Assembly (NCBI GenBank): GCA_018649885.1
Contig: JABIHA010000087.1
Coordinates: forward strand, 1 to 64,000
Origin: Bacteriovoracaceae bacterium
Lineage (GTDB): Bacteria; Bdellovibrionota; Bacteriovoracia; Bacteriovoracales; Bacteriovoracaceae
Reading direction: 5' to 3'
DNA length: 64,000 bases
Numbering within the stretch: position 1 is the stretch's first letter; every line of letters starts with the position of its first letter. Below are positions 2 through 38,345 of the stretch, in pieces. The translations under genes were made by a program, and so were the position numbers. Below the pieces are notes generated by a model. That model did no database searches, was not told the DNA's origin, and was given only the letters and a program-made list of their open reading frames with translations.

Positions 2-193
2 ACCGCCGAAGCACAAGCTTCTGCCACTGCCGAAGCTCAATCATCTGCTACTGCCCACGCACAAGCATCTGCCACTGCCCAGGCACAAGCATCTGCTACT
101 GCCGAAGCACAAGCATCTGCTACTGCCGAAGCACAAGCTTCTGCCACTGCTGAAGCACAAGCATCTGCTACTGCTGAAGCACAAGCATCTGCT
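2..193 (+). repeat. Eight tandem 24-bp coding repeats (consensus TAEAQASA), running off the window edge
   Basis: Units acy gcy gaa gca caa gcw tct gcy start at 2, 26, 50, 74, 98, 122, 146 and 170. Confidence 0.95.
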
Positions 194-9915: not shown

Positions 9916-9925
9916 AAAAGTATCC

Positions 9926-10705: not shown

Positions 10706-10714
10706 GATAGTCCT

Positions 10715-11575: not shown

Positions 11576-11584
11576 GACCACCCT

Positions 11585-12436: not shown

Positions 12437-12473
12437 CGTTACACTCCTTTTAGCGTTATTGATGAATAATAAA

Positions 12474-12490
12474 AGCAAATCTCCTGCCAA
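12474..12490 (-). promoter_or_regulatory. sigma54 (RpoN) -24/-12 promoter for the barrel array
   Basis: Minus strand reads TTGGCAGGAGATTTGCT, with exact GG-N10-GC spacing, about 40 nt upstream of ATG 12436. Confidence 0.85.
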
Positions 12491-12507
12491 GAATGTCTCC
12501 CCTAAAT

Positions 12508-14244: not shown

Positions 14245-14247
14245 ATA

Positions 14248-23121: not shown

Positions 23122-23594
23122 TCCCTACCCTCCACGACTTTTTCAATGGCCTTTTCAATTTTAGTGTAACCAGTGCATCTACAAATTGTTCCCGAAACAC
23201 ATTTTTTGATTTGGTTTTTACTGGGTGCCTTATGGGTGTTAAGCAGGTGAGTGGCATTTAAAACCATTGAGGGGGTACAAAATCCACACTGAATCGCGCC
23301 GTTTTCCACCATTGATTCTTGAATAGGTGTCAGTTGACCATCAACAGAGATCCCCTCAATTGTGGTAATCTCAGCATCCTGAACAAACTTGGCAAGAACT
23401 AAGCAAGCAAGAATGGGTTTGCCATCGACTAAAACACTACAACAGCCACACTCTCCGCGGTCGCACCCAATTTTAGTTCCCGTTAAATCACACTCCTCCC
23501 TTATAAAATGAGAAAGAGTCATGAGAGAAGAAACTGCTCTACTATAGCTGACAGAATTTATATTCAATGTCACGACTTCAACTAGATCATTCAA
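23118..23594 (-). CDS. hcrC: 4-hydroxybenzoyl-CoA reductase gamma (2x[2Fe-2S]) subunit-like
   Basis: Motifs GTKIGCDRGECGCC, QCGFCTP and CRCTGY. TTG start at 23594 after AAGGA. Confidence 0.85.
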   Translation of the reverse strand: MNDLVEVVTLNINSVSYSRAVSSLMTLSHFIREECDLTGTKIGCDRGECGCCSVLVDGKPILACLVLAKFVQDAEITTIEGISVDGQLTPIQESMVENGAIQCGFCTPSMVLNATHLLNTHKAPSKNQIKKCVSGTICRCTGYTKIEKAIEKVVEGRE

Positions 23595-23604
23595 AACTTT
23601 GTCC

Positions 23605-24354
23605 TTAAAGCGCCAGTTGCCCGCAGCTTTTCCCACCATCTACATGAAGGATTTGCCCGGTAATATAACTAGACTTATCTGATGCCAAAAAACATACTGC
23701 TTCAGCAATATCTGCAGTCGTTCCCATTCTCTTTAATGGCCTTGAATTTATTAGCTTTTCTTTAATTTTATCTGGGACCGCTCGACTCATTTCAGTGTCC
23801 ACAAGACCTGGAGAAACTCCGTTGACATTAATGCTATATCTTGCCGCTTCCATAGCAAGAGTCCTAGTCATTCCAACAAGACCACCTTTACTTGCAGAAT
23901 AATTAGCTTGCCCAATATTTCCCAGCCATGAAGCCGAGATAATATTAACTATTTTTCCATAATTTTTTTCACTCATAGATGGGTAGACTGCTTGAGCAAA
24001 CAAGAAGGCGCCCTTGAGATTGACATCAATTACGTCATCCCAATCTTTTTCAGTAATATTGGTTAGAAATCCGTCTCTTGTGATGCCTGCATTATTGACT
24101 AAGATATCGATATGCCCAAACTTTGCCAGTACCTCTTTGATACTTGACTGGACAAATTCCTTATCAGTAACATCTCCACATAATCTTATTACATTTTCAT
24201 TAGAAGCTTCATCAAATTCAGCAAGAAGACTTTCATTGCAATCAATCAATGCCACTTTAGCACCACGACCCAAAAGAGTGCTTGCAACACACTTTCCAAT
24301 GCCTCTTGCGGCACCTGTAACCAGAGCTACTTTGTGTTCAAAATCACCATTCAT
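23605..24354 (-). CDS. FabG-like short-chain dehydrogenase (3-oxoacyl-CoA/ACP reductase)
   Basis: Motifs TGAARGIG, NNAGITRD, YSASK and ITGQILHVDGG. Start reassigned to 24354. Confidence 0.9.
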   Translation of the reverse strand: MNGDFEHKVALVTGAARGIGKCVASTLLGRGAKVALIDCNESLLAEFDEASNENVIRLCGDVTDKEFVQSSIKEVLAKFGHIDILVNNAGITRDGFLTNITEKDWDDVIDVNLKGAFLFAQAVYPSMSEKNYGKIVNIISASWLGNIGQANYSASKGGLVGMTRTLAMEAARYSINVNGVSPGLVDTEMSRAVPDKIKEKLINSRPLKRMGTTADIAEAVCFLASDKSSYITGQILHVDGGKSCGQLAL

Positions 24355-24356
24355 AT

Positions 24357-25640
24357 TCACACCCTTTCCACAAGCATCGCAATTCCCTGGCCACCACCAA
24401 TGCAAGCCGATGCTACTCCGTACCTTTTATCAAGTTGTTTAAGTGACCTAAGAAGTGTCAGTACAAGTCTCACCCCAGTCGCACCTAGCGGATGACCTAT
24501 AGCAATTGAGCCACCGTTAATATTGAGTTTTTCCTGATCGATTTCAAGAGCTTTTGCGCAACTAAGTACTTGAGCACCAAAAGCCTCATTGATCTCAAAT
24601 AAATCAATTTCAGAAATCCCCATACCAGACCCAGCTAAAAGCGCTTTAATGGCCGGAACTGGACCTTCACCCATTAAAGAGGGATCAACTCCCACACTAA
24701 CGGCAGCTTTTATTTTGCCCATGGCCTGAAGCTGGTTTTCCTCTAAAAATTCTTTGCTACAAATAATACTGGCACAAGCCCCATCCACTATACCACTAGC
24801 ACTGCCGGCTGTTGTGGGACCAGACTTACTAAATACAAAAGGCAATTTCCCAAGTGACTCCATTGTGCCCATTCTAGGATGCTCATCTTTTACAAAGCTT
24901 TCTTTTGCTCTCGTTTTAGTTTTGTATTTTCTCGTTTTTAAGTCAGGTAGGTGTTTGGCCCCATCAAAACTTCCCCTTGGGTCAACTCCAACTATTTCAT
25001 CATCAAAGAACCCAGACTCACAGGCCTTTTGGTATCTTTGTTGTGATCTCAGTGAAAACTCGTCGACTTCAACGCGTGACAGTCCATATTTCTTTGCTAG
25101 ATTATCAGCAGTCTCTCCCATAGGAGTGGCGGCCGTATCATTTAAGGCCTCCCAAAGCATATCGCTATACTCAGGCCTTCCTAGAGCAAATCCAGTGCGG
25201 GCCGTAAATGAAACAAGAGGCATACGACTCATGGTTTCTGTTCCCACACTAAGGATGCAATCCCCCTTGCCCATACCAATTTGTTCACAGGCCTGAGCTA
25301 TAATTTCAATTCCAGAGCCACATATTCTTTGGGATAAAAGAGCTGGTACTCCCAGCTTTGCTCCAGCATAAAGACCAATATGTCTTGGTAGAAAAAATGC
25401 ATCTTCTGAGCACTGAGCAATATTTGAGGCGATCACTTGATCAACTTTAGTGCCGTCAATTCCGCTTGCTTTGAGACATGCTTTGGAACTCAATATGGCA
25501 AGATCAGTTGGAGAAACAGTGCTTAAAGTACCATTCATTTTTCCAAATGCTGTTCTCTTCCCCGAAACAAAATAAATATTTTCAAATACTGAGCCACAGG
25601 CCCCATAAGAATCTTTAAAACCTTTTACACTTGCACTCAT
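24357..25640 (-). CDS. Thiolase (acetyl-CoA C-acyltransferase)
   Basis: Motifs RICGSG, EINEAF, GHPLGATG and CIGGGQG. Confidence 0.92.
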   Translation of the reverse strand: MSASVKGFKDSYGACGSVFENIYFVSGKRTAFGKMNGTLSTVSPTDLAILSSKACLKASGIDGTKVDQVIASNIAQCSEDAFFLPRHIGLYAGAKLGVPALLSQRICGSGIEIIAQACEQIGMGKGDCILSVGTETMSRMPLVSFTARTGFALGRPEYSDMLWEALNDTAATPMGETADNLAKKYGLSRVEVDEFSLRSQQRYQKACESGFFDDEIVGVDPRGSFDGAKHLPDLKTRKYKTKTRAKESFVKDEHPRMGTMESLGKLPFVFSKSGPTTAGSASGIVDGACASIICSKEFLEENQLQAMGKIKAAVSVGVDPSLMGEGPVPAIKALLAGSGMGISEIDLFEINEAFGAQVLSCAKALEIDQEKLNINGGSIAIGHPLGATGVRLVLTLLRSLKQLDKRYGVASACIGGGQGIAMLVERV

Positions 25641-25642
25641 AA

Positions 25643-27640
25643 TTACCTTCCTAAAAATTGAACTTTTTCTCTGTTAATGACACTTTCTAATCCCAAAAGA
25701 GCATCGCTGGTTGAGAAAATCCACTCAAGTGAGTCAATCTCACACTGCAGTCCCTCTTCTAGAGATACACCTTCTCCACGGCCCACAAGCTCCATCGCCT
25801 TTTCAAGTGCAAGCGGAGCTCTTCTTTCGAGATACTTTCGGTGATTTTGAAAAATTTCTTTTTCCCAAAGAGTCTCACATAGCTTTCCATCAAAACTTGA
25901 AAATTCCTCTTCAGGGAGATTTTCATTTTTTGGATGAGTGGACACTTCAAGACCATCAAGCTCTCTAAAGCTTCTGGGACGATCTATAATTTTATCAACA
26001 AGCCCTAAAGAATATGCGCGATTTGCATCGACCATCACTCCGGTTGCCACGAGATATTTTGTAATGCCGGCGCCAACAAGCCTGGTAGTTCTTTGGGTAC
26101 CGCCAAGACCTGGATAAATTCCAATTCCTGTTTCTGGAAAGCTAAGGTAAGCATTTTTGCACGCCACACGATAGTCACAACTAAGGGCGAGCTCTAATCC
26201 TCCCCCTAGGGTCAGACCATTGAGAAAAGCAATGGTTTTCTTTTTGGAGTTAGAAATTGTTGATAAAATTGCTTGTCCCTGAACTGTGAAGTCTTTTATC
26301 TTACCAATCTGCTGATTTTTTATACCATCAACAAAGAACTTTATATCCGCGCCAGCAACAAAGGCCTTCCCTCTTCCTGTCAAAACGATGGTTTCTATTT
26401 GAGGATTTTGTTCAAGCTCTTTGAATTTGAGGTCTAGACAGGCCATGACCTGCTCATTTAGTGCATTCATGCTATCGGGGCGATTAAATTCTAATATTCC
26501 AGTACTCGAAAAAATATGAGTATTGATGTGATCAATTTCTATTTCACCTTCTCTATTTTGATTCATTATTTCAGGAACCGGCAAATCATAGGCGGTGAAT
26601 AAACTCTCCACGATTTCAATTGCAGTCTTCACGCCTATTTGATTCATCATCTCAAAAGGACCAGCGGGCCAACGAAGTCCAAGTCTTGCCCCTAGATCTG
26701 TGGAGCTCACGTCACATACTCCCTCACTAACCATTTGAGCGGCAACTCCGAGGGAGGCTGCAATCAAGCGTGATCTAACAATTGACTTTTCATCACTGCA
26801 CTTGTCATCACCACAAATAGTCCACTGCTCACCACTAGTGACTTGTTCTGCTAGCTTTTTTGAGGGTCTATAGAATTCTCCAAAGCTATCAAATAGCGTT
26901 TGAGAAGCGTGAAGAGCGATGGGTACCCCTGTTGCATTCATCAGCGCAAATGGTCCCATCCCCACACCAAATGTTTCCATTGCCACACGGTCAATAAACT
27001 CGGTTGAGCCAATGCCTTCATCATAGAGTCTGGCAGCTTCATTGAGCCATGGAACAAAGAAGCGATTAACAGCGAACCCTTGAACATCTTTGGTTAGAAT
27101 AGGACATTTTTCGATAAAATTGTAAAAATCAACTACTTGAGTGACCACTTCTGGATCTGTACCAGAGGCCTTGATGACTTCAACTAATTTATTTTTTGCT
27201 GCATGAAAAAAGTAATGAACTCCAAGGCATCTGCCTTTGTATTTCATCCCTTCTGTTAATTTGGCGATTGAAAATGATGAAGTATTGGAGGCCAATATAC
27301 AACTCTCACTGACAATAGATTCAAGATCTAAAAATAGCTTAGATTTTATCTCAAGGTTTTCGAAAATTGCTTCCACAATAAATTCTCTGCCTTCAAGAAA
27401 TTTTAAATCTGTTGAGCTTTTTAAACCGCTCATCAGCTGCTCTTTTTTCTCAGCTTTCATGATTTTCCGAGAAACAGCTTCATCAAAGCTTGTATCTAAA
27501 TTAGAAAGTCCTCTTTTTAGACCTTCGGAGGAAATATCAACAAGAGATACATCCATTCCTTTCATCATAAAATGTTGAGCAATGGCGGCTCCCATAGTGC
27601 CGGCGCCTACAACTCCAATTTTTGTTAGAGAATTTTTCAT
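25643..27640 (-). CDS. 3-hydroxyacyl-CoA dehydrogenase / enoyl-CoA hydratase fusion
   Basis: N-terminal GAGTMG, VEAIFE and ASNTSS; C-terminal crotonase AFVAGADI, GGGLELAL and PETGIGIYPGLGGTQR. Confidence 0.92.
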   Translation of the reverse strand: MKNSLTKIGVVGAGTMGAAIAQHFMMKGMDVSLVDISSEGLKRGLSNLDTSFDEAVSRKIMKAEKKEQLMSGLKSSTDLKFLEGREFIVEAIFENLEIKSKLFLDLESIVSESCILASNTSSFSIAKLTEGMKYKGRCLGVHYFFHAAKNKLVEVIKASGTDPEVVTQVVDFYNFIEKCPILTKDVQGFAVNRFFVPWLNEAARLYDEGIGSTEFIDRVAMETFGVGMGPFALMNATGVPIALHASQTLFDSFGEFYRPSKKLAEQVTSGEQWTICGDDKCSDEKSIVRSRLIAASLGVAAQMVSEGVCDVSSTDLGARLGLRWPAGPFEMMNQIGVKTAIEIVESLFTAYDLPVPEIMNQNREGEIEIDHINTHIFSSTGILEFNRPDSMNALNEQVMACLDLKFKELEQNPQIETIVLTGRGKAFVAGADIKFFVDGIKNQQIGKIKDFTVQGQAILSTISNSKKKTIAFLNGLTLGGGLELALSCDYRVACKNAYLSFPETGIGIYPGLGGTQRTTRLVGAGITKYLVATGVMVDANRAYSLGLVDKIIDRPRSFRELDGLEVSTHPKNENLPEEEFSSFDGKLCETLWEKEIFQNHRKYLERRAPLALEKAMELVGRGEGVSLEEGLQCEIDSLEWIFSTSDALLGLESVINREKVQFLGR

Positions 27641-27649
27641 ATCCGTTCC

Positions 27650-29341
27650 TTAAATTGATATATAGTGGGCATCGCCCGGAAGTTTTTCTGGAGTACCATT
27701 AACCAAACAATCAATATACTCCCGGTAATTTTCTTCAATGATTCTTGGAACTAGCTTCATAGAAGGAGTTAGCTCTCTATTTTCAATGGAAAGCTCTCTT
27801 TCAATGACAACAGCATTTTTTATGCGCTCAAATTTTGCCACAAGCTCGTTATTAATTTTATCAAGACAACTTGAAAAACAGTTGGAATACTCCATCATGC
27901 CACATGGAGAGGCACATCCCCCCTCTTTCTTATCAAGTTTTGTATCTAACAATTCAAGGTTGGGGAAAACAAGGGCAAGTGGTGCTACCTGTCCACTTCC
28001 AAAAACATAAATATACTTAATATAGTGACAAACCTTTCTGACATTTTCCTCAATGGGGACAGGAAAGAGCTTTTCAGCATTAGCAAGTTTGAAGATGCGA
28101 TCTTTTCTCGATAATATTTTTACCCCATCTTCTGTAATTTCTCCCACATCACCTGTTTTAAACCAATTGTCTTCAGTAAAGGCCTTGGCATTTTCTTCCG
28201 GGCATCTAAAGTAGCCCTTCATCACATTGGGTCCTTTAACCAGAATTTCACCGTCATTTGCTAGTTTCACACTCACTTCAGGTAGAGGAAAACCTACAAC
28301 TCCTGGAGTTCTCTCAAGAGATCTCTCAGTTAAAGTGCAGCAAGGAGAAGTTTCAGTAAGCCCCCATCCTTCAATCACAGGTATTTTTTTCTCCGTGAAT
28401 ATCTTTGAGGTACTCAGTGGTAGAGGTGCAGCTGCTGTAAAAACAAATTGAAGCTCTTTATGAAAAAAGATATCTTTTGTTTTTTTATCACTCAAAACTC
28501 GCCCAATAATCTCTTGGTAAATCCTGGGAACACTAAAATAAATATGAGGTTTCACCATGTCGAAATTTTCTAGAAGCCTGTCTACATTCTTACCAAAAGA
28601 GTCATCAATACAAAGACACCCCCCTGAGTAAAGTGCGAGGAATCTCTCGAAGAGTCCACCAAAACTATGGTGCCATGGAAGATAGCACAAGTATCGAAGT
28701 GAGGGGCCAAGCTCCCATAGCAGCTCAAGAGATTTTTGCTGAGATAATATATTTGAGTGGCTTAACATCACTCCTTTGGGAAAGTTAGTGGTTCCCGAGG
28801 TATACATTATAAGAGCTGTATCTTCAGCGACTACACTATTAAAAATCGCCAGGACACTATTCAACTCAAATGGAGTTTCATCTTCCAGTACTTTTTCAAT
28901 TTGATCTAATAAAATACAGCGATCACTCAGTTTCTCTAAATTAAGTTGATCTTTTTTCGCCTGAGTATCAACTACAAGAAACGATAAATCAGAAAAATCA
29001 ATTAGTTTATTTGTAAGATCAGCAGGATAGGCACTAAATATAGGCACACTAACGAACCCACAGGCCATGACACTCATTTCGCAAACAAGTCTGTGATAGC
29101 TATTTGTAGTAATGAGGCCGACTCGGTCGCCCTTCTCTAGGCCTTTTTTAATGAGGTAGTCACTAAAGCGGAAAATATCCTCACAAAACTCTTTCCAGTT
29201 CTTGTACTCAAATGCACTGCCTACTCTATTCCCGAAAGCGGGCTTGTCGCCATAGTGTTTTAAATTATTTAAAAATATAGTCCCAATATTGGGATAATAG
29301 CTGTCTAAAACTTTATCAGATACCAGATTTGTTCCCATCAT
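27650..29341 (-). CDS. AMP-dependent acyl/aryl-CoA ligase
   Basis: Motifs YTSGTT, GWGLTE and TGDVG. LPWHHSFGG..GGCLCIDD resembles feruloyl-CoA synthetases. Start is uncertain (29389, 29341 or 29338). Confidence 0.88.
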   Translation of the reverse strand: MMGTNLVSDKVLDSYYPNIGTIFLNNLKHYGDKPAFGNRVGSAFEYKNWKEFCEDIFRFSDYLIKKGLEKGDRVGLITTNSYHRLVCEMSVMACGFVSVPIFSAYPADLTNKLIDFSDLSFLVVDTQAKKDQLNLEKLSDRCILLDQIEKVLEDETPFELNSVLAIFNSVVAEDTALIMYTSGTTNFPKGVMLSHSNILSQQKSLELLWELGPSLRYLCYLPWHHSFGGLFERFLALYSGGCLCIDDSFGKNVDRLLENFDMVKPHIYFSVPRIYQEIIGRVLSDKKTKDIFFHKELQFVFTAAAPLPLSTSKIFTEKKIPVIEGWGLTETSPCCTLTERSLERTPGVVGFPLPEVSVKLANDGEILVKGPNVMKGYFRCPEENAKAFTEDNWFKTGDVGEITEDGVKILSRKDRIFKLANAEKLFPVPIEENVRKVCHYIKYIYVFGSGQVAPLALVFPNLELLDTKLDKKEGGCASPCGMMEYSNCFSSCLDKINNELVAKFERIKNAVVIERELSIENRELTPSMKLVPRIIEENYREYIDCLVNGTPEKLPGDAHYISI

Positions 29342-29354
29342 TTCCCCCACAAGC

Positions 29355-30131
29355 TTAGCTATTGCTAAATTTTGGACTTCTTTTTTCAAGAAAGGACTCT
29401 ATGCCCTCATTGGCATCAGATAAACTCATCAACTCTTCGAGGTAGAGCTTTTCAAGTTTAGAAATTGAGCTGTGATACCTTTCACTTAAAACGAGCCTTG
29501 AAGCTTTTGTAGCAACTCTTAGGCTCGAAGCACTTTTAGGAAGAATTTCTTTAACAATAAATTCTTCTATGACTCCGTCAAGTTCTTCATCTGCGCTTAC
29601 CGAGTTCACAAACCCACTACATTTGAGCGCCTTGGCAGTCACGGTCTTACCCGTAAGGATTAATTCTTGTGCGATTGTATCAGTTAGAAGTGTGGACAAA
29701 AGAGCACAGGCCACTGGAGGAAATACCCCGAGCGTAATTTCTGGGACTCCAAATTTGGCACCTTTACTTGCAAAAATAAAATGAGAGGCCATGGCCACTT
29801 CAAATCCACCACCAAGACACTGTCCCCTAACCTTTGAAAGGATTGGAATAGGAAAATCAATCAGCCTTGCAATAGTTTTATGAAACTCGGGAAGCATTGC
29901 CCCTACTCTATCTTTTGTATGCTCTTCTACTGAAGCCCCAAAGCTAAAGTGCTTTCCAGATCCACAAAGGATAACGAGTTTTACATCTTTTTGACTTTCT
30001 ATTTCTTTCAGAGCACTTGTAAGTTGCCCCATCAAGTTTTGAGAAATAATATTGGCGGGTGCCGGGCCAAGCGTGATCTGTGCGACTTGCCCTTCATGAG
30101 TTGAGTTTACTTCTATATATTGGTCTGCCAT
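29355..30131 (-). CDS. dch: Cyclohexa-1,5-diene-1-carbonyl-CoA hydratase
   Basis: Motifs PANI, HFSFGASVEEH, GQCLGGG, PEITLGVFPP and LEKLYLEELM..DANEG. Confidence 0.88.
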   Translation of the reverse strand: MADQYIEVNSTHEGQVAQITLGPAPANIISQNLMGQLTSALKEIESQKDVKLVILCGSGKHFSFGASVEEHTKDRVGAMLPEFHKTIARLIDFPIPILSKVRGQCLGGGFEVAMASHFIFASKGAKFGVPEITLGVFPPVACALLSTLLTDTIAQELILTGKTVTAKALKCSGFVNSVSADEELDGVIEEFIVKEILPKSASSLRVATKASRLVLSERYHSSISKLEKLYLEELMSLSDANEGIESFLEKRSPKFSNS

Positions 30132-30141
30132 AAATAATCCT

Positions 30142-31221
30142 TTATTTTTTGGGCAAAATATCCTCTGTTAGCTGATCACTCCAAGGAGTTGCATTTGCCA
30201 GCTCACGTCTGAGTTTTAAGAAATCCACCTCTCGGTTTGCCTTGGTTCCCTCATTGAAAGCTCTAAATCCGGCGCGTGCCTCAGTCATCATATTAAGCGC
30301 TAGCCATGAACGGTTGGTTTCAGAATTTTGCTGCCAGTGCTCTAGTTTTTTCTTTCTGAGAGATTCCATAGTTTTTGAAAGGCAATCGGGCATAGTCATT
30401 GAAAATGAGTAGGCCAATTGATTAACTTCACGGTCAAGAAGCGAAAGATCTGTTTCACACTCAGCCGCAACCTTTTTCGCCGCCTCTTTTTCATCACCAG
30501 TTTTAAAACTACCAAAGCTATGATTTCCCCAACTATCTACTGGGTTTAGGCTGACAAATGGATTTGAAATAAATTCACCATTTTTATTTTTAAGAACGGG
30601 AACTACTTTATTAATAAGACCTACTGACTGTGCCATGTGGGCAGACCAGTGCTCACAAAGAGTGCAAGATTCCATTGCCAGTGTAAAGCCTGTGTATAGA
30701 TGCAAGAAATCCGTTGAACCTCCATCTGGAGCTGAGCCATGTTTAGGTCCTGCCTGACCAAACCTTGCAGTGTCAGAGCTGAGTGTAAAGTCACAGGCCA
30801 TTCCAATTTCTTGTCCACCACCAATTCTCATTCCATTGACTCTATTGATCACTGGTTTATCGCAAAGAAGTATAGAGGTAACCATATCGTTAAAAAGCCT
30901 CATGTACTGCTTGTACTCTTGTGGGTTACCAGCATAATACTCAGCATATTCCTTTGTATTGCCTCCGGTACAAAAAGCTTTATCACCTACGGCCGAAAAG
31001 ATTACTGCGACAGTAGATCTATCAACGGAGGCCTGCCGGAAGGCCAGAATGATTTCTTTAACAGCTTTAGTTGTATAAGAGTTGTACTGAGCAGGATTGT
31101 TGAGCATGATCCAAAAATTGTAGAGCCCTTCAACATTGTTGCCATTTTTGTCTAAGAGGCTTCTCTTTTCTACTATAATATCCGTATACTCATAATCAGA
31201 AATAAGATGGTGGTCCTTCAC
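30142..31221 (-). CDS. oah: 6-oxocyclohex-1-ene-1-carbonyl-CoA hydrolase (ring-opening)
   Basis: Motifs NPAQYNSYTT, CTGGNTKEYAEYYAGNPQEY, RIGGGQEIGMACD and WLALNMMTEA. Confidence 0.95.
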   Translation of the reverse strand: MKDHHLISDYEYTDIIVEKRSLLDKNGNNVEGLYNFWIMLNNPAQYNSYTTKAVKEIILAFRQASVDRSTVAVIFSAVGDKAFCTGGNTKEYAEYYAGNPQEYKQYMRLFNDMVTSILLCDKPVINRVNGMRIGGGQEIGMACDFTLSSDTARFGQAGPKHGSAPDGGSTDFLHLYTGFTLAMESCTLCEHWSAHMAQSVGLINKVVPVLKNKNGEFISNPFVSLNPVDSWGNHSFGSFKTGDEKEAAKKVAAECETDLSLLDREVNQLAYSFSMTMPDCLSKTMESLRKKKLEHWQQNSETNRSWLALNMMTEARAGFRAFNEGTKANREVDFLKLRRELANATPWSDQLTEDILPKK

Positions 31222-31238
31222 TACATAACTCCTAAATT

Positions 31239-32300
31239 TCAGGGAACAAATATCGCCCGTTTTTCTAATTTGTGCTCTAAGCTGAGAGCAATGACTTCAT
31301 TAATTTTATCAAGAGGAAAAATCTCAATATTTTCTTTTAATTTAATTTCACCAGACAAAACACCTTTTACGACATCGGGATAATACTTGGGACTACAACC
31401 CCAGTTCCCAAATAAATCACCGTCAAAGGCCATGAGGTTACTAAGCCTGAGCTCCAGCTTGTCCATGGTAAACCCAATGATTCCTACAACCCCTGCAAAT
31501 GATAACAAGGAAAATGCTGACATTTGTCCAGCACCTGTACCACTGGTTTCGAATACTTTCCAACCAAAGTTAGGAAGAGAATTTTCTTTTACGATTTCTC
31601 TTACCTTTTTCTTAAGATCTCTTGGAGCGAGCCCTTTAACATTAATAGCAAAGCTAGCACCAAACATTTTGGCAGACTCAAGTTTTTGATCACTGACATC
31701 ACATGCAATGACTGTGGCACCTATATTTTTTAGGTGTTGAACCATATAGATGCCAATTCCACCTGTTCCCAACACAATCGCTAAATCTCCCTTCTTTGCT
31801 TTGCTTCTTTTTAAAGACTGATAGGGAGTGGTGATGGCATCAGCTACCACTGACAATTCTTCTAATTTAAATTCGCCAAGTTCTTCAGCAACAACACACA
31901 GAAATCTTCCTGGAACTTTTATATGAGAAGCAAAGCCTCCATGAAAATCGTTGCCGGGCATTTTTTGGTTCTGACAAATATTGTCTCTGCCAGCAAGACA
32001 TAGCTCACAGTCTCCGCAAGGAAGCACAGCGGGAATAATCACTTTCTTATCAATTAAGTTTTCCATCTCACTACAGGCGGAGACAACTACACCACTAATT
32101 TCATGACCTAGTACCAGAGGTGTTTGCATTTTAGTGCCAACAGCACCCGTATAAAAACTGAGATCAGTATGACAAAGGCCACAGCCGTGAACCTTAACAA
32201 TAACTTCTCCACTTTCAGGGGGCGTAATCTCAAACTCTTTTCTACTCAGAGCTTGACCGACGTCAGTAAAAAAGTATCCGTAGGCGTTGAGCTTATTCAC
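31239..32300 (-). CDS. had: 6-hydroxycyclohex-1-ene-1-carbonyl-CoA dehydrogenase
   Basis: Zn-ADH motifs CGLCHTD and GHE; QKMPGND; RLSNLMAFD..GNWGC. Confidence 0.93.
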   Translation of the reverse strand: MNKLNAYGYFFTDVGQALSRKEFEITPPESGEVIVKVHGCGLCHTDLSFYTGAVGTKMQTPLVLGHEISGVVVSACSEMENLIDKKVIIPAVLPCGDCELCLAGRDNICQNQKMPGNDFHGGFASHIKVPGRFLCVVAEELGEFKLEELSVVADAITTPYQSLKRSKAKKGDLAIVLGTGGIGIYMVQHLKNIGATVIACDVSDQKLESAKMFGASFAINVKGLAPRDLKKKVREIVKENSLPNFGWKVFETSGTGAGQMSAFSLLSFAGVVGIIGFTMDKLELRLSNLMAFDGDLFGNWGCSPKYYPDVVKGVLSGEIKLKENIEIFPLDKINEVIALSLEHKLEKRAIFVP

Positions 32301-32481
32301 GTATTTCTCTCCTAAAATGCTTTGCTAGGAAACATAGCAAATTTTTTTCTTTAAAACCCTAATGCTCATTAGGTTATTGCCACAAAACAAGGCTTCAAAT
32401 TTCTAGCAAAATTTCGCAAACTTTTTCTGTATTGAGAGCAATTACTTTATCCAGAATTTACTTAAAACTAAGACATTAAAT

Positions 32482-32510
32482 TTGACGTAAGAGCGTATCG
32501 TTTTTAACCT
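32482..32510 (+). promoter_or_regulatory. Candidate sigma70 promoter
   Basis: TTGACG-N17-TAACCT, about 24 nt before ATG 32534. Confidence 0.5.
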
Positions 32511-32533
32511 GATGCTTTAAAACGGGAATTCTT

Positions 32534-33754
32534 ATGTCTATGAAAATCGAGTCTACGAAAATATTAAAAAAAATGACTACTGAGTACTTCCAGTCTTTTT
32601 TTCCAAAAGAGGGCAAGCGCCCTCTCACAGCATGGTGTTCCAGCATCGGCCCCTCAGAAATTTTAACTGCTATGGGTTTTCAGGTGTACTACCCAGAAAA
32701 TCATGGTGCTCTTCTGGGTGCAACGCGTACTAGTAATGATCATATCCCCAAGGCCCATTCCATTGGATACCATCCCGACATATGCTCCTATTTAAGTTCT
32801 GATATAGGTGCTTATTTAAATGGACAAACTCCGCTGACAAAAACTTATGGAATTCCAGAAATTCCAAAACCTGACCTCTTGGTTTACTCAACTAACCAGT
32901 GCCGCGAGGTCCAAGATTGGTTTGGCTTCTATGAAAAAGAGTTCGGGGCCAAAATGATCGGCATTAGCTCTCCTTGGAAGTTGGGAGTCATGGGGAGTGA
33001 AGAAGTCACCTACGTAAAAAACCAATTAAAGGAAATGATAAAAACTATTGAAGATCACTTTAAGCTAAAGCTTGACCCTCAAAAATTAAAAGAGGTTGTG
33101 GGTCTCTCAGCTGAGTCTTCAAAGTTATGGAAAACCTTTTTGAGAAAGGCCAAGTCAACGCCAGCCCCTTTTTCATTTTTTGATGGCTGCATTCAAATGG
33201 CGCCAGCAGTGGTACTGAGGGGAAGAGCTGATGCGGTGGAATACTACAAAACTCTTAATGGGGAAGTCGATCAGTACTTAGCTACAAATCCCCCCTCCAC
33301 AAAACCTGAGTTTAGACTCTACTGGGATGGCATGCCAATCTGGGGAAAGCTTCGCTTTTTTTCAGATTTGTTCAAAGAGAACAATACAACAGTCGTGGGC
33401 TCCACATATTGTGATTCTTGGATTTTTGACTGCCTAGATGGAGACAACCCCCTTGAGAGCATGGCCATGGCCTACACTCGAATTTTTATTAATCGAAGTG
33501 AAGAAATTAAAGAGGCCACACTAAAAAATATGTATGAAGAATATGATTGTGATGGAATGATTTTTCACGACTCGAAAACTTGTCCCTACAATTCCAATAA
33601 CCGTTTTTGTTTACCACAGAGATTAAGTGATAAATTTAATATCCCCAATTTGGTTATAGACGGAGATCTCAATGATCTTCGTTGTTTTTCTGAAGAACAA
33701 ACCGTAACTGCAGTTGAATCATTTTTAGAGCAGCTAAGGATTGATAAACTATGA
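32534..33754 (+). CDS. 2-hydroxyacyl-CoA dehydratase / class I benzoyl-CoA reductase B-type subunit
   Basis: Motifs YPENH, DICSY, TNQC and FHDSKTC (three Fe-S Cys), plus IDGD and the C-terminal ESFLE; HGD-D family. Confidence 0.88.
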   Translation: MSMKIESTKILKKMTTEYFQSFFPKEGKRPLTAWCSSIGPSEILTAMGFQVYYPENHGALLGATRTSNDHIPKAHSIGYHPDICSYLSSDIGAYLNGQTPLTKTYGIPEIPKPDLLVYSTNQCREVQDWFGFYEKEFGAKMIGISSPWKLGVMGSEEVTYVKNQLKEMIKTIEDHFKLKLDPQKLKEVVGLSAESSKLWKTFLRKAKSTPAPFSFFDGCIQMAPAVVLRGRADAVEYYKTLNGEVDQYLATNPPSTKPEFRLYWDGMPIWGKLRFFSDLFKENNTTVVGSTYCDSWIFDCLDGDNPLESMAMAYTRIFINRSEEIKEATLKNMYEEYDCDGMIFHDSKTCPYNSNNRFCLPQRLSDKFNIPNLVIDGDLNDLRCFSEEQTVTAVESFLEQLRIDKL

Positions 33755-34539
33755 GTGAGTACTTTTTTGGCATTGATATTGGATCATCCTACACTAAGGC
33801 CTGTATCTTAGATGCAAATAGAAAAGTATTAGCACAAAGGACAATTAAAACTGGCATTAGCTTCGAAAATGCCTGCGAAAAAGTAAAAGAGCTAGTTGTC
33901 AGTGACTTGAAAATATCTGGTGATCAATTAACAAAATCTGTATCTACAGGAGTGGGAAGGAAAAATGTTGCCTTTGCCCAGTTCAATAAGCCTGAATTAA
34001 ATTGCATCTCAAAGGCCTGTTACTTTTATTTCCCCCAGGCCTCAACCATTATTGATATTGGAGGCCAAGATAATAAACTTATTATTGTGGCCGCTGACGG
34101 AAAGCAAAAATCTTTTAAAATGAATCGGAAGTGTGCCTCTGGCACTGGAAGCTTTTTGGAAGAGATGTCATTAAAGCTCGATTTGGGACTAACCGAGATG
34201 AATGAAAGGGCCCGAAGTGTGAAAGATAGTGTCAAAGTTAGTAGCTTTTGCACAGTCTTTGCTGCTACTGAGATCATCCACCATATAAGAAATAATAGTG
34301 ATACCAACCAAATTATCCGCGGGGTTTTCGAATCAGTGATCAAAAGAGTTTTTGAAATGGGAGACCTGAGTGGCACTATTATCCTCTCCGGAGGCACCAT
34401 TGAGAAAAATCCCATGCTGATCCAAATATTTGGTGAAAAATTAAACTCTCCCCCACTCGTTCCACCAGCGCCACAAATGATTGGTGCCATTGGGGCTGCT
34501 CTTTACGGTGTGGATGAATTTGAAAAGGAGAATGCATAG
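33751..34539 (+). CDS. ATP-dependent activase (HgdC/FldI/BcrAD-BadFG family)
   Basis: Motifs GIDIGSSYTK, IDIGGQDNK, MNRKCASGTG, SSFCTVFA and GAIGAA. Confidence 0.92.
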   Translation: MSEYFFGIDIGSSYTKACILDANRKVLAQRTIKTGISFENACEKVKELVVSDLKISGDQLTKSVSTGVGRKNVAFAQFNKPELNCISKACYFYFPQASTIIDIGGQDNKLIIVAADGKQKSFKMNRKCASGTGSFLEEMSLKLDLGLTEMNERARSVKDSVKVSSFCTVFAATEIIHHIRNNSDTNQIIRGVFESVIKRVFEMGDLSGTIILSGGTIEKNPMLIQIFGEKLNSPPLVPPAPQMIGAIGAALYGVDEFEKENA

Positions 34540-35498
34540 TGAGCTCAAATGAAAGACCCATTGGTTTTATAGGTGCAGGAGTCGTAGGCTCAATTTTTGC
34601 AAGTGCCCTTAGTAAAAATACTGATAGAGATATTGTAGTGGTTGACAATGGTCCGAGATTTGAGCAAATCAAATCCGGTGGACTAAAAACAAAGGGAGTA
34701 CTTGAGTTAGATGGGGGCACCCCAAAGCTTTTTAACTCTTTGGATGCTTTTTCTGAATTTAATCTTCACTCTCTATTTATCTCCACAAAGAGCAGCTCCC
34801 TTAAGTTTCTTCTTCCCGCACTAAAGGATAAAGTCAAAAAAGACACAATCCTCATTAGCTTGCAAAATGGACTTGAAACAGAGGACACCATAAAGGAATA
34901 TTTTCCGGACAACCCCATTGGAAGAGTTGTCATTAATCTCGCCGGCAGAGTTGATGAACAAAGTGGTGAAATAGAAGTGGCATGGTTTAATCCCCCCAAC
35001 TATATAGGACTTTTGGATGATGCAAATGAGACGCGGCTTGGTAGTATTCTAGAAGATTTAAATTCTAATGGACTGACTACTAAATTTGTCTCAAGTTTTG
35101 AAATCAAAAAACAATCCTTTCACAAAAATATGTTAAATGCTTCACTTAATCCCATGTGTGGGCTTCTCTCCCTTACAATGAATGATGCCATGACCTTCGA
35201 CGCCTCTAGATCAATCGCCAGAGGACTACTAAAAGAAGGTCTTGCAGTGGGAAAAGAGCTAGGTTTTGATTACGGCGAAGGGATCTTAGAAAAGCTACTT
35301 GCCTATCTAGATGGCGGTGGGAATCACTACCCCTCTATGTGGAGTGATCTGCAAGCCGGGCGCATGAGTGAAATAGAATATATCAATGGAAAAATTGTTG
35401 AAAATGCTAAACGATTAGGAGTGGAAACTCCCTATAATGAACTTTTAACAATGATGGTTATGGCCTGTGAATCAAAAGCTGGCAGCCGAAAAGCTTAG
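34539..35498 (+). CDS. Ketopantoate reductase (PanE/ApbA)-family 2-oxoacid reductase
   Basis: Motifs GAGVVG, LQNG, K..LNASLNP, SMWSD and EIEYING. Confidence 0.85.
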   Translation: MSSNERPIGFIGAGVVGSIFASALSKNTDRDIVVVDNGPRFEQIKSGGLKTKGVLELDGGTPKLFNSLDAFSEFNLHSLFISTKSSSLKFLLPALKDKVKKDTILISLQNGLETEDTIKEYFPDNPIGRVVINLAGRVDEQSGEIEVAWFNPPNYIGLLDDANETRLGSILEDLNSNGLTTKFVSSFEIKKQSFHKNMLNASLNPMCGLLSLTMNDAMTFDASRSIARGLLKEGLAVGKELGFDYGEGILEKLLAYLDGGGNHYPSMWSDLQAGRMSEIEYINGKIVENAKRLGVETPYNELLTMMVMACESKAGSRKA

Positions 35499-35529
35499 CT
35501 TTTACGCACTTGAATACTAAGGATTAAAA

Positions 35530-36624
35530 ATGGGTAAGCTAGTCACAGTCTCTATTGAAAGCATTGTCCCCTACAACCCAGGGAAAACCACTGAAGAGCT
35601 CAAAAGTGAGCTAGGACTAGAAAAGATCATTCGGGCCTGTGCCAATGAAACCTTTCTGCCCCCCTCCGAAAAAGCTATTGAAGCTGTTGTGGCCAACTTA
35701 GATCAACTTCCCATTTACCCCGATGGTGGCGCAAGTAATTTGAGAAATAAAATTGCCCAAAAAATGAATGTAGATGCTGATGAAGTGGTTCTTGGAAATG
35801 GCTCAAATGAGCTCATTGAGTTGATTGTCAGAACTTTTGCAAGGCCTGCTGACGAGATCATTACATCTATCCCAAGCTTTGTAGTATACAAGCACATAGC
35901 CCTGGCCCATGGATTAAAAGTCCATGAGCTACCACTTAAAAATCAAAAATTTGATTTGGCCGCCATGAAAGCGAAAATCACACCTCAGAGTCGCTTTATC
36001 TTTATTGCCAATCCCAACAACCCTACTGGCACCTATATTACAAATCGAGAGCTTGAAGAATTTTTAACTGATCTCCCGGAAGATCTTATAGTTGTTTTAG
36101 ATGAGGCCTATATTGAATATGTGGATGCGGATGATTTTCCCAATTCACTCGACTACCGAAATCAGCATCAAAATCTGATCACACTCAGAACTTTTTCAAA
36201 AATTTATGGCCTTGCTGCCCTCAGGGTTGGTTATGCCATTGCACAAAAAAATATCATCAACTATCTTGGTAGAGTCAGGGCCGTTTTCAATGTGAACTCT
36301 CTGGCCCAAGTCGCCGCTGAGGCAGTGCTAGATGACAGGGAGTATATTCAAAATTCAAAAAACCTTTTACTCCAAAATAGAAAACAACTAAGCGAGGGAC
36401 TAAGCTCGCTTGGGCTCACGATCACTCCCAGTCAGGCCAATTTTGTGTTGGTGGATTTAATGGGAGCAGATACCTTAGAAACTCAAAAAGAACTTTTAAA
36501 AAGAGGTGTGTTTGTGGCACCAATGCCCACTTCTTGGCTTCCTCATCACCACCGGGTGAGTGTCTGCAGTTTTGAGGATAATATGGAAATTATTTCAGCC
36601 TATAAAGAAGTCTTAAAACTTTAG
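35530..36624 (+). CDS. hisC: HisC-family PLP aminotransferase (histidinol-phosphate or aromatic amino acid)
   Basis: Motifs YNPGK, GNGSNE, NPNNPTG, DEAY and RTFSKIYGLAALRVGY. Confidence 0.8.
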   Translation: MGKLVTVSIESIVPYNPGKTTEELKSELGLEKIIRACANETFLPPSEKAIEAVVANLDQLPIYPDGGASNLRNKIAQKMNVDADEVVLGNGSNELIELIVRTFARPADEIITSIPSFVVYKHIALAHGLKVHELPLKNQKFDLAAMKAKITPQSRFIFIANPNNPTGTYITNRELEEFLTDLPEDLIVVLDEAYIEYVDADDFPNSLDYRNQHQNLITLRTFSKIYGLAALRVGYAIAQKNIINYLGRVRAVFNVNSLAQVAAEAVLDDREYIQNSKNLLLQNRKQLSEGLSSLGLTITPSQANFVLVDLMGADTLETQKELLKRGVFVAPMPTSWLPHHHRVSVCSFEDNMEIISAYKEVLKL

Positions 36625-36765
36625 ATTCTTTCTTATATCTGGGTGTTGACAAAAAATCATGAAAGTTTTGTAGAATTAGTAGAATGGTTTTAATTGGCTT
36701 TGATATTAGCTCAGTGTTTTAAGAGTGGTATTGACAAGACCACACCCTACCGCCGCTGGAGGTAT

Positions 36766-36930
36766 TCGCGGTTCTGGAAATTTAGTGGTGCCACGAATAT
36801 TTGAAGAGCGCCTTCTATTAGGGTCGCCCATCTAAGGTGCAAACCTTCAGAAAAACATTATTTTATGGATGTTATTCTCTAACTAGATTTAATTTCTGTA
36901 GTAGCAAGTAATTCAAAAAGAGATATGTTT
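36766..36930 (+). repeat. HNH-associated repeat, copy A (diverged; direct orientation relative to B)
   Basis: CGGTTCTGGAAATTTAGTGGTG...GAGCGCCTT...CTAGATTTAATT..GTAG is collinear with copies B and C. Confidence 0.75.
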
Positions 36931-37076
36931 GTACACCAATACCAATTTTGTAGTTTCAACATCGCCATAGGCTGAGGGTTGGTAGCTCTGAAGATAACGA
37001 GAAATTTATTTAATTTCAAAGAACTATTTGAAATTTGGTTTATGCCTTATTTGATTTTTGAAAAAAAATAAAAGTT

Positions 37077-37315
37077 ATGTGGAACCAGTTGTGAAAAGCT
37101 GCTGCTCACGGTGCTGGAAAGTTTAGTGGTGTTTCGAGATTTTGGAAAGCATCTCTTATCAAGGCGGCATTTTTTTAAAAAAAGTAATTTTTTATTGATA
37201 TCTCGCTCCCAGCTGAATTTAATTATCGTGGTAGTTGCTTTTATGAAAAAGGGAAATCGGTTGTTTGGAATTTTTATAATTTTTTGTCTATTTGGTGAAA
37301 AGGTTTTGTGAATTT
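37077..37315 (+). repeat. HNH-associated repeat, copy B (left inverted repeat)
   Basis: 37217-37245 is the exact reverse complement of 38515-38543 (29 bp). 37103-37130 matches 38628-38655 at 26/28 positions. Confidence 0.9.
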
Positions 37316-37475
37316 TCATTCTATTGCGTTTTACATTCGTTCTTTCAGTGAATCCATAATCGCTAACAGCTCCTACCGGATTACCTTTCATGCTTTTTCT
37401 GACTGGACATTTTTTAATCTTTTTATTTAATAAATGTGATTGGAATGGTATGTTACTTCCACCTGGGAGGTCGCT

Positions 37476-38345
37476 TTGTCACTACGGAATTTATCAGATC
37501 AAGGACTTATTGCAGACACTAAAATGTGGAATGAAAAAGAAGAACACTGTACTCGCCAGTTCCTCCGCCACATTAATGAGGTGAATAGACGAAGGCTTTT
37601 TTGTGATGATAAGACGGGCTCACTCTTTAAATATATCCGCAAAAATTTCAATAAAAGTGATAGCGAAACAAGTCGAAGAGTTTTAGCAGCGAAAACACTA
37701 AGGCATGTGCCCTGTGCAGATAAAGCTCTGGCAAACAAACAAGTAACACTTACTAACCTGGCAGAAATCTCAAATTTAGTGGAAAATATTAAAAGTAAAA
37801 AAAAGAAAAATGAAATACTAGGCAGTATAAAAGGGAAGACTCAAATCCAGACAAGAGAGTTTGTGGACGAGTTGACTGGAAAGAAGCGCGCCACTAGATC
37901 TAAAACTCACTCTCACTCAGATGGAAGTATTCGCATTCATCTCACCTTGGTTGGGCAAACGGCAAAAGATTATGATTTTATTAAAGAACAGCTATCTAAC
38001 AATAGAATCTATAAACCAGAAGACATAATAGGACATGCCATTAACCCTAAAGCAGAGTCTATGAGAAAAAGGATTATGGGCATTGGATCAAGAAAATCTA
38101 AAGTAATCACAAATTCTAGAACCATCTCAGCTGCCATCAAAAATGCAGTGATGATAAGGTCGGGCAACAAATGTGAAAACTGTGACTCAAAGTACAACCT
38201 ACACTTTGATCATATCATCCCCCATAGCATGGGGGGAGCATCGGCGATCGGGAACGTGCGCCAGTTATGTTCAAATTGCAATGCAAGAGCCGCTATTGTT
38301 GCACTTTCGCAGACAAAGATGGATTTATTTATAAACCAGAGCTAG
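37476..38345 (+). CDS. HNH endonuclease with a long helical N-terminal region (DUF222-like architecture)
   Basis: C-terminal CENC..DHIIPHSMGG..N..LCSNCN; N-terminal LSD..L..HINEVNRRRL..SLFKY..SRRVLA. TTG start at 37476 after GGGAGG. Confidence 0.9.
   Translation: MSLRNLSDQGLIADTKMWNEKEEHCTRQFLRHINEVNRRRLFCDDKTGSLFKYIRKNFNKSDSETSRRVLAAKTLRHVPCADKALANKQVTLTNLAEISNLVENIKSKKKKNEILGSIKGKTQIQTREFVDELTGKKRATRSKTHSHSDGSIRIHLTLVGQTAKDYDFIKEQLSNNRIYKPEDIIGHAINPKAESMRKRIMGIGSRKSKVITNSRTISAAIKNAVMIRSGNKCENCDSKYNLHFDHIIPHSMGGASAIGNVRQLCSNCNARAAIVALSQTKMDLFINQS

Follow-up and report, generated by a model that had tools for sequence, protein, structure and literature searches.

Gene organization of the island

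The subject of this analysis is a gene island on contig JABIHA010000087.1 of a Bacteriovoracaceae bacterium (GenBank assembly GCA_018649885.1), examined within a window of 64,000 nucleotides (positions 1 to 64,000 of the forward strand). At its centre lies the gene of P0001, a radical-enzyme subunit of the HGD-D family, followed by genes of an activase, a 2-oxoacid reductase and an aminotransferase, and set back to back with a second operon that carries ring-cleavage genes of the benzoyl-CoA pathway. The two operons might together constitute an entry route by which aromatic amino acids, in the form of aryl-lactates, reach benzoyl-CoA. Their members are as follows (scores in bits, with model cut-offs where given).

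32534–33754, plus strand: P0001, HGD-D radical-enzyme subunit, 406 residues (PF06050, 213; HadB alpha, 206)
33751–34539, plus strand: ATP-dependent activase (BcrAD_BadFG / CoA_E_activ), 262 residues (TIGR00241, 197; cut-off 125)
34539–35498, plus strand: PanE/ApbA-family NAD(P)H 2-oxoacid reductase, 319 residues (TIGR00745, 153; cut-off 141)
35530–36624, plus strand: HisC-family class II aminotransferase, 364 residues (TIGR01141, 318; cut-off 277)
31239–32300, minus strand: Had, 6-hydroxycyclohex-1-ene-1-carbonyl-CoA dehydrogenase (TIGR03201, 440; cut-off 339)
30142–31221, minus strand: Oah/BamA, 6-oxocyclohex-1-ene-1-carbonyl-CoA hydrolase (TIGR03200, 525; cut-off 464)
29355–30131, minus strand: Dch-like crotonase, dienoyl-CoA hydratase-like (best match TIGR03189, 217, below the cut-off of 292)
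27650–29389, minus strand: P0005, AMP-forming acyl-CoA ligase with an AMP-binding_C_3 tail, proposed 2-hydroxyacid-CoA ligase (Pfam)
25643–27640, minus strand: HCDH/ECH fusion of 3-hydroxyacyl-CoA dehydrogenase and enoyl-CoA hydratase (PF02737, PF00725, PF00378)
24357–25640, minus strand: thiolase (TIGR01930, 374)
23605–24405, minus strand: SDR, FabG-like short-chain dehydrogenase (Pfam and NCBIfam)
19778–23639, minus strand: HcrC/HcrA/HcrB-like molybdenum enzyme, relative of 4-hydroxybenzoyl-CoA reductase (alpha subunit 782 on TIGR03194; cut-off 995)

The operons face away from a 233-base intergenic region (32301–32533 in the window). In the plus arm, the HGD-D and activase genes overlap by 4 bases and the activase and PanE-like genes by 1 base, with the HisC-like gene 31 bases further on; the minus arm is a string of ten genes running from Had through the HcrC/A/B-like subunits. 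Every gene named in the first-pass annotation is an intact open reading frame with a matching family, and the divergent arrangement described there was confirmed, although the Hcr-like genes (19778–23639), which its text invokes, fall outside the segment that it delimited. The gene arrangement is not due to chance, as the same families recur around HGD-D homologues in many phyla. A scan of 32200–37500 for promoters and terminators gave nothing beyond shuffled expectation.

P0001, a HadB-like protein with six conserved cysteines

By sequence, P0001 most resembles HadB, the catalytic alpha subunit of (R)-2-hydroxyisocaproyl-CoA dehydratase. Its NCBIfam scores are 206 bits for HadB, 129 for BcrB, 53 for BzdO and 47 for the double-cubane model, and the order is similar against solved structures (HadB alpha, PDB ID: 3o3m_A, 167 bits; MbdO, 91; BzdO, 48). 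A profile built from 20 family members, when compared with the PDB, gives 232 bits for HadB alpha, 154 for MbdO, 114 for BzdO, 39 for the double-cubane cluster protein (DCCP) and 25 for HadC beta. The AlphaFold2 model of P0001 (pLDDT 89.5) is best superposed by Foldseek on HadB alpha (TM 0.88/0.90), followed by MbdO and BzdO (0.85/0.79); DCCP reaches 0.71 and the beta-type subunits 0.66–0.73.

Three cysteines of P0001 (C84, C123 and C350) align with HadB cysteines and are present in every one of 20 family members; they are the probable cluster ligands, judging from this alignment. Three more (C35, C293 and C384) are conserved in the P0001 family and absent from HadB. In alignment A1, C35, C84, C123, C293 and C350 are invariant and C384 is nearly so; the six residues are split three per protein half, with spacings of X48, X38, X169, X56 and X33. 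When the family was aligned profile to profile with BcrC-like subunits, the match covered the C-terminal half only and revealed no shared extra cysteine.

The first-pass annotation had regarded P0001 as a subunit of the radical dehydratase family and had cited FldBC/FldI as a known precedent. The best match to HadB alpha and the presence of an activase agree with this view; a beta subunit gene, in contrast, was not found in the genome, which is 92% complete and holds three HGD-D genes in all (P0001 and a BcrC/BcrB-like pair on contig C40). Among 80 related loci, no adjacent beta gene was seen apart from Bcr pairs. A dedicated ASKHA-type activator is encoded next to P0001 by an overlapping gene. 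Since a heterodimer partner is lacking, P0001 is kept out of the HadBC/FldBC enzyme type and is described as a partner-less relative.

Probably P0001 pairs with itself. A two-copy model scored 0.72 versus 0.42 for the best control; in calibration, 20 of 30 proteins solved as same-chain pairs reached the mark, compared with 1 of 23 single-chain structures. In three homodimer runs, contact agreement was at least 92% and partner pLDDT at least 91, and the flanks of C84, C123 and C350 make up the modelled interface. The result may be due to resemblance to the solved HadBC heterodimer, and the model supports, but does not prove, a homodimer.

Three other class assignments were considered for P0001 and rejected, the first of them as the main reading. 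A minimal benzoyl-CoA reductase (BCR) made of P0001 and its activase is opposed by the separate BcrC/BcrB-like pair with two ATPases, present here and in five of five FCB-type genomes, and by the higher score of P0001 on HadB than on BcrB or BzdO. Membership in class I BCR requires four subunits, and the P0001 arm has one HGD-D and one ATPase gene. Known class I enzymes (BcrCBAD, BzdNOPQ and MbdONQP) belong to the same superfamily, with ATP-driven electron injection, and their genes are co-located with the P0001 family in many operons; they differ in having two different HGD-D and two ATPase subunits, and the set of this genome is separate, on contig C40. Membership in DCCP is opposed by the score on NF040772 (47 bits versus a cut-off of 350) and by the seven-cysteine motif, CX19CX18-19CX29CX166-170CX32-34CX32C according to the available text of PMC7317905, where DCCP is also described as a homodimer. 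C293 aligns with a double-cubane protein cysteine and C123-X169-C293 matches the C-X166-170-C element of that motif (PMC7317905, as available), but the rest is not kept, so that P0001 is not a DCCP. The DCCP/DCCP-R system (PDB IDs: 6eno and 7yyl) nevertheless resembles the island in comprising one HGD-D-type subunit and one activase, its match to P0001 being weak (39 bits by profile, TM 0.71).

The same features could be expected of an ATP-driven reductase with two clusters per subunit, acting on a substituted aromatic or alicyclic CoA ester (by reductive dehydroxylation or extra ring reduction), with the PanE-like enzyme handling a keto intermediate. The six conserved cysteines, three per half, fit such an enzyme, as do the alignment of C293 with the DCCP cysteine and the one motif element shared with it (PMC7317905, available text), the modelled homodimer with a single activase, the close structural neighbours MbdO and BzdO (TM 0.85) and the strong tie to benzoyl-CoA and Hcr-like genes. 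We consider this reading unlikely, as sequence, profile and fold comparisons all rank the dehydratase alpha subunit above the BCR catalytic subunits, the double-cubane model gives 47 bits versus 350 with the other cysteine spacings off the DCCP motif, and an ordinary four-subunit BCR exists alongside in five of five FCB-type genomes and in the present one. Moreover, the neighbouring 2-hydroxyacid dehydrogenases and CoA-activating enzymes, drawn from several unrelated families, are those predicted by a hydroxyacid route.

Conservation of the neighbourhood

P0001 belongs to a very large uncharacterised family, and the gene set of the island is conserved but unstudied. No homologue was found in 40 relatives from the same family and phylum. 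Elsewhere, 6565 proteins match at E <= 1e-20 among 8000 candidates scored (about 50–64% identity), and at least 591 loci were confirmed in a contig scan, spanning Bacteroidota, Thermodesulfobacteriota, Planctomycetota, Verrucomicrobiota, Myxococcota, archaea and others. The island was probably acquired horizontally and would serve anaerobic aromatic-acid breakdown.

Neighbouring genes were counted in the best 80 of the at least 591 loci by tblastn with the window proteins, clustering of open reading frames and Pfam/NCBIfam annotation, and again in the 38 of these 80 with at least 7 kb of flank on either side:

Activase: 69/80 loci; 37/38 long-flank loci
PanE homologue: 22/80; 14/38
C3-type ligase directly adjoining the HGD-D gene: 18/80; 11/38
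Had or Oah: 20/80; 13/38
Hcr-like subunits: 12/80; 9/38
HisC-like gene: 1/80; 1/38

An HCDH/ECH homologue is found in 12 of the 80, and HCDH/ECH and thiolase genes recur in family loci. The most complete arrangement is the operon of the FCB group (BcrC-BcrB-BcrA-BcrD-ligase-HGDD-PanE-activase-thiolase-Had-Oah-Dch-HCDH/ECH), which often includes SDR, Hcr, XdhC and MobA as well. PanE and activase constitute one open reading frame of about 610–635 residues in nine FCB-group loci (L045:11230-13104, L027, L035, L037, L049, L064, L075, L077 and L089). A second architecture, Ldh_2-HGDD-activase-ADP-forming acyl-CoA synthetase-SSF transporter, has Had, Oah and Hcr close by in some loci. A third, from Desulfobacterota, consists of a GlcD-like FAD/FeS/CCG dehydrogenase-HGDD-activase-AMP ligase-thiolase. 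In the closest relative among the matches listed (L010, a Bdellovibrionales bin, 60% identity), the order is thiolase-unknown-family III CoA-transferase-HGDD-activase-PanE, with 400 bits for the transferase. A gene for tryptophanase or tyrosine phenol-lyase (684 bits on NF009709) lies beside the module in a Myxococcales bin (L011:4059-5495, minus strand) and a Flavobacteriales bin (L075:883-2307).

The oxidoreductases beside the HGD-D gene thus belong to three unrelated families (PanE, Ldh_2 and the GlcD-like FAD/CCG enzyme), and the CoA-activating enzymes are of four kinds (C3-type AMP ligase, standard AMP ligase, ADP-forming synthetase and family III CoA-transferase). Exchange of unrelated enzymes for the same two roles, along with beta-oxidation sets, is the pattern expected of a sequence from 2-oxoacid through 2-hydroxyacid and 2-hydroxyacyl-CoA to enoyl-CoA and beta-oxidation. 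It is not the pattern expected were the ligase merely a benzoate activator.

A tree of the 80 loci and the window, built by a quick method and rooted on four BcrB-like sequences, contains three clades. Clade I holds the window with L010, L011 and L012; as the window and L010 are on long branches, their join is insecure. Clade II consists of 20 FCB-group rows, in which linkage to PanE and benzoyl-CoA genes is almost universal, and clade III of the 57 remaining rows.

Near the Hcr-like genes of two loci (L046:17981-19586 and L087:19826-21152) there is a pair of an SCP-x-type thiolase and a DUF35 protein (ChsH2 zinc-ribbon/OB). The pair resembles benzoylsuccinyl-CoA thiolase BbsAB, with a BbsB model score of 169 bits that falls short of the cut-off.

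Co-occurrence with ring cleavage

Presence of the family is correlated with presence of Oah. In a sample of 301 Bacteroidota genomes, five carry the family and seven carry Oah; all five carriers have Oah, two of them having been seeded by loci already found. Among 201 sampled Thermodesulfobacteriota genomes, 38 encode the family, 55 encode Oah and 33 encode both, i.e., Oah is present in 33 of 38 carriers versus 22 of 163 non-carriers (odds ratio 42, the genomes being related and not independent). A feeder yielding benzoyl-CoA would need a ring-cleavage pathway, which accords with this tie. The linkage of the HGD-D, activase, PanE-like and ligase genes to an aromatic pathway, as put forward in the first-pass annotation, recurs both in synteny and in co-occurrence; no result, in turn, shows an aromatic substrate.

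A non-aromatic 2-hydroxyacyl-CoA could be handled instead, the leading candidate being the route from 2-oxoglutarate through (R)-2-hydroxyglutarate and 2-hydroxyglutaryl-CoA to glutaconyl-CoA, in either direction. The module would then travel with benzoyl-CoA genes because of the shared trunk from glutaconyl-CoA through crotonyl-CoA to acetyl-CoA. The GlcD-like FAD/CCG dehydrogenase, a neighbour of the gene in 11 loci, reaches 216 bits on YdiJ, the D-2-hydroxyglutarate dehydrogenase model, and 402 on GlcD, both below cut-off; one locus (L058) encodes malonyl-CoA decarboxylase; the family is present in genomes without Oah; and HCDH/ECH and thiolase would suit crotonyl-CoA too. Against this, no glutaconyl-CoA decarboxylase (carboxyltransferase) is found among the families annotated around the 80 loci, and the sole acyl-CoA dehydrogenase family there (f45) occurs in three. 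Oah, which all five Bacteroidota carriers possess, would be dispensable for a glutamate route standing by itself, and the Hcr-like, tryptophanase or tyrosine phenol-lyase and HisC-like neighbours point to aromatics. On balance, a non-aromatic acid such as 2-hydroxyglutarate is an improbable substrate.

The PanE-like and HisC-like genes

The PanE-like protein exceeds the cut-off of TIGR00745, a subfamily-level model (153 bits versus 141). Its best solved match (PDB IDs: 3wfi, 3wfj and 5x20; 90 bits) is listed as 2-dehydropantoate 2-reductase, which we take instead to be D-mandelate dehydrogenase. The gene at 34539–35498 is the only one of the PanE family in the genome and panB is present, so that it may have a role in pantothenate synthesis. 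A full-length PanE-family gene is found in just 2 of the 40 relatives.

For the HisC-like protein, the second-best PDB match is the putative phenylalanine aminotransferase 4r2n (177 bits). A further HisC-like gene on contig C54 scores higher than the island copy (337 versus 318 bits) and is not located in a his operon. Neither hisD (histidinol dehydrogenase) nor hisB (IGPD) was found in the genome by models that match 14 of 14 control genomes; at 92% completeness, their absence is unproven. On this ground, neither HisC-like gene looks like part of the histidine pathway, and the island copy is unlikely to be a housekeeping gene. The window also encodes an N-formylglutamate amidohydrolase and an amidohydrolase in tandem (49366–51480), which could serve to utilise histidine in a genome that yielded neither hisD nor hisB.

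The HisC-like gene adjoins PanE here and in one other locus (L043). As a part of the module it is not conserved, with linkage in 1 of 80 loci. The first-pass annotation would have been contradicted by sole housekeeping copies of hisC and panE with unconserved linkage to the cluster. In fact, HisC does not look like a sole housekeeping copy and the PanE linkage is conserved; the HisC linkage, on the other hand, is not, and the PanE-like gene is a sole copy.

It might be argued that the plus arm is unrelated, consisting of housekeeping HisC and PanE beside an orphan radical enzyme, and that the minus arm is a benzoate or 4-hydroxybenzoate pathway with its own ligase and lower beta-oxidation. Both proteins do exceed their NCBIfam cut-offs, the PanE-like gene is the sole copy next to a present panB, and the HisC linkage is rare (1/80). 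Such a coincidence is nonetheless highly improbable: of the 80 loci, 22 show PanE linked to the HGD-D gene and nine show it fused to the activase, the ligase adjoins the HGD-D gene in 18, full-length PanE occurs in just 2 of 40 relatives, a higher-scoring second HisC exists while neither hisD nor IGPD was found in this genome, and the HGD-D, activase and PanE genes overlap one another.

Ligase, beta-oxidation and ring-reduction genes

The ligase had been described as feruloyl-CoA synthetase-like and not of the benzoate type. The LPWHHSFGG motif is indeed present, and the score on the benzoate-CoA ligase model (TIGR02262) is far below the cut-off (54 bits versus 375). The feruloyl likeness is weak, since among solved relatives the scores of 124 bits for malonyl-CoA synthetase and 100 bits for oxalate-CoA ligase exceed that for feruloyl-CoA synthetase (PDB ID: 8wev, 97 bits). 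No benzoate-CoA ligase at cut-off was found in the genome, the best candidate reaching 193 bits versus 375.

The Hcr-like alpha subunit gives 782 bits on TIGR03194 (cut-off 995), the next family giving 476; the beta subunit gives 157 versus a cut-off of 404 and the gamma subunit 149 versus 258. The beta subunit contains four cysteines within an FAD-domain insertion; a cysteine-rich beta-subunit loop, as in the Thauera enzyme, is a mark of 4-hydroxybenzoyl-CoA reductase.

Contig C40 (C40:755-8403, locus L007) carries a BcrC-BcrB-BcrA-BcrD-like four-gene set, with IorB/IorA divergent from it. IorA (indolepyruvate:ferredoxin oxidoreductase alpha) scores above its cut-off, and IorAB could be either an arylpyruvate-oxidising branch or a ferredoxin supplier to the ring reductase. 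Of the partner enzymes known from other loci, no ADP-forming synthetase, Ldh_2, SSF transporter, tyrosine phenol-lyase or BbsAB-like thiolase was found in this genome by tblastn (1e-10), and the best match to the family III CoA-transferase is just 26% identical.

Proposed route

In the reading preferred here, the plus-arm operon and the minus-arm ligase would form a 2-hydroxyacid entry module. The HisC-type aminotransferase would convert phenylalanine or tyrosine to the arylpyruvate, which the PanE-type reductase would reduce to the (R)-aryl-lactate and the AMP-ligase would activate to aryl-lactyl-CoA. The ATP-activated, partner-less HadB-type enzyme, probably a homodimer, would then dehydrate this compound by ketyl-radical chemistry to (hydroxy)cinnamoyl-CoA, from which the HCDH/ECH fusion and thiolase would form (4-hydroxy)benzoyl-CoA and acetyl-CoA. 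The Hcr-like enzyme would take off the 4-hydroxyl, the four-subunit BcrCBAD-like reductase (contig C40) would dearomatise the ring, and Dch, Had and Oah would open it. The analysis shows the gene content, the family placement, the lack of a beta subunit gene, the conserved linkage and the co-occurrence with Oah, whereas each substrate, the dehydratase activity, the homodimer, the specificity of the ligase and the direction of flux are inferred.

The probability of the whole route, i.e., an oxidative aryl-lactate entry into benzoyl-CoA through a one-subunit dehydratase variant, is roughly 0.45. A functional tie of a 2-hydroxyacyl-CoA dehydratase-type module to the benzoyl-CoA pathway, taken by itself, has a higher probability. 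An aromatic amino-acid substrate is hinted at by the HisC-like gene, the tryptophanase or tyrosine phenol-lyase neighbours, IorAB, the Hcr-like enzyme and the want of a benzoate-CoA ligase at cut-off. A more ambitious form of the proposal would comprise a third ketyl-radical architecture (a homodimer whose subunits each hold the catalytic [4Fe-4S] cluster and, in place of the beta subunit, a second cluster on C35/C293/C384) and a widespread main aryl-lactate route for phenylalanine and tyrosine, used by strict as well as facultative anaerobes, that bypasses the alpha-oxidation of phenylacetyl-CoA; it is doubtful.

Several observations weigh against the proposed route. No aromatic pocket is evident in the sequence of P0001; the 92%-complete genome offers it no beta partner, and the extra cysteines C35, C293 and C384 point to cluster chemistry unlike that of the known dehydratases. 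The ligase may belong to a different lineage of benzoate-CoA ligases, and HCDH/ECH, thiolase and SDR are also needed for the conversion of 3-hydroxypimelyl-CoA to glutaryl-CoA, so that they are not specific for beta-oxidation of cinnamoyl-CoA. The single PanE-like copy beside panB and the rare HisC linkage belong here as well. In Desulfomonilaceae, the HGD-D/activase pair is embedded amid housekeeping-looking genes. The tie to Oah across genomes may be due in part to a versatile anaerobic lifestyle, and carriers without Oah exist (two of five genomes checked, one Verrucomicrobiota and one Planctomycetota, and 5 of the 38 Thermodesulfobacteriota).

Comparison with known systems

The closest characterised relative is the HadBC/HadI system of Clostridioides difficile (PDB IDs: 3o3m, 3o3n and 3o3o), whose alpha subunit is the best match of P0001 by sequence, profile and fold. 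Like the had system, the island contains an ASKHA activase next door, a reductase forming 2-hydroxyacids and a CoA-activating enzyme. Unlike HadBC, P0001 has no HadC-like beta gene, carries three further conserved cysteines and is modelled as a homodimer. The LdhA enzyme of the had operon is of the D-2-hydroxyacid dehydrogenase type, whereas the island reductase is of the PanE type. In place of the family III CoA-transferase, which is found only in the relative L010, the island encodes an AMP ligase. As no acyl-CoA dehydrogenase or electron-transferring flavoprotein (ETF) lies near the island module, its product is probably oxidised and not reduced.

In denitrifiers, the anaerobic phenylalanine route leads via phenylacetyl-CoA and phenylglyoxylate to benzoyl-CoA. 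It shares its start (phenylpyruvate, formed by transamination) and its end with the proposed route, which differs in passing through aryl-lactyl-CoA and cinnamoyl-CoA, yields acetyl-CoA and avoids the alpha-oxidation of phenylacetyl-CoA.

The FldABC/FldI/FldH system from the reductive Stickland branch of Clostridium sporogenes, compared here by its description in the available part of PMC13416013 (where Dickert et al. 2002 is cited), has the same chemistry as that proposed, an ATP-activated iron-sulfur radical enzyme converting aryl-lactyl-CoA to cinnamoyl-CoA. Fld is heterotrimeric and includes a CoA-transferase subunit, unlike P0001, and its product is reduced to arylpropionate and excreted, whereas the neighbours in the island suggest beta-oxidation to benzoyl-CoA and ring cleavage. 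In PMC13416013, the sequence phenylpyruvate to phenyllactyl-CoA to cinnamoyl-CoA to benzoyl-CoA is hypothesised for a sulfate reducer that degrades benzene. Within the literature searched, this hypothesis, in the part of PMC13416013 that was available, is the only mention found of an aryl-lactate route to benzoyl-CoA, and no description of a one-subunit dehydratase of the P0001 kind was found. The review PMC7317905, to the extent available, covers only heterodimeric dehydratases, BCRs and homodimeric DCCPs.

Flanking genes

Beyond the HisC-like gene, an HNH endonuclease gene (37440–38345 in the window) with a weak IscB-like match (35 bits) precedes a PcaF-like thiolase (38795–40003; 519 bits, below its cut-off); the HNH gene may be a mobile insertion at the island edge. 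On the opposite side, a radical SAM protein with a Radical_SAM_C domain (18861–19805) is convergent with the HcrB-like gene, and their 3' ends overlap at 19778–19805. More distant are a tandem of a sigma-54 activator (578 residues) and a Ser/Thr protein kinase (522 residues) at 12508–15816, located upstream of four open reading frames without a Pfam match (9118–12511), and an open frame of at least 2528 residues (2–7588) that leaves the window at its 5' end.

Implications

If the proposed route is correct, a gene set very common in anaerobes would gain a function, being found at no fewer than the 591 confirmed loci and in 19% of the sampled Thermodesulfobacteriota. Degradation of aromatic amino acids without oxygen would acquire a route linking Stickland-type radical dehydration with cleavage of the ring. 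The superfamily that holds 2-hydroxyacyl-CoA dehydratases as well as BCRs would be extended by a one-subunit form that has six conserved cysteines, which bears on how the activating electron is transferred to the active site. Annotation of bamA/oah-positive metagenome bins would also improve, as these genes now carry generic BcrC, BadD or HgdB labels; the family is present in 33 of the 55 Oah-positive Thermodesulfobacteriota and in five of the seven Oah-positive Bacteroidota sampled.

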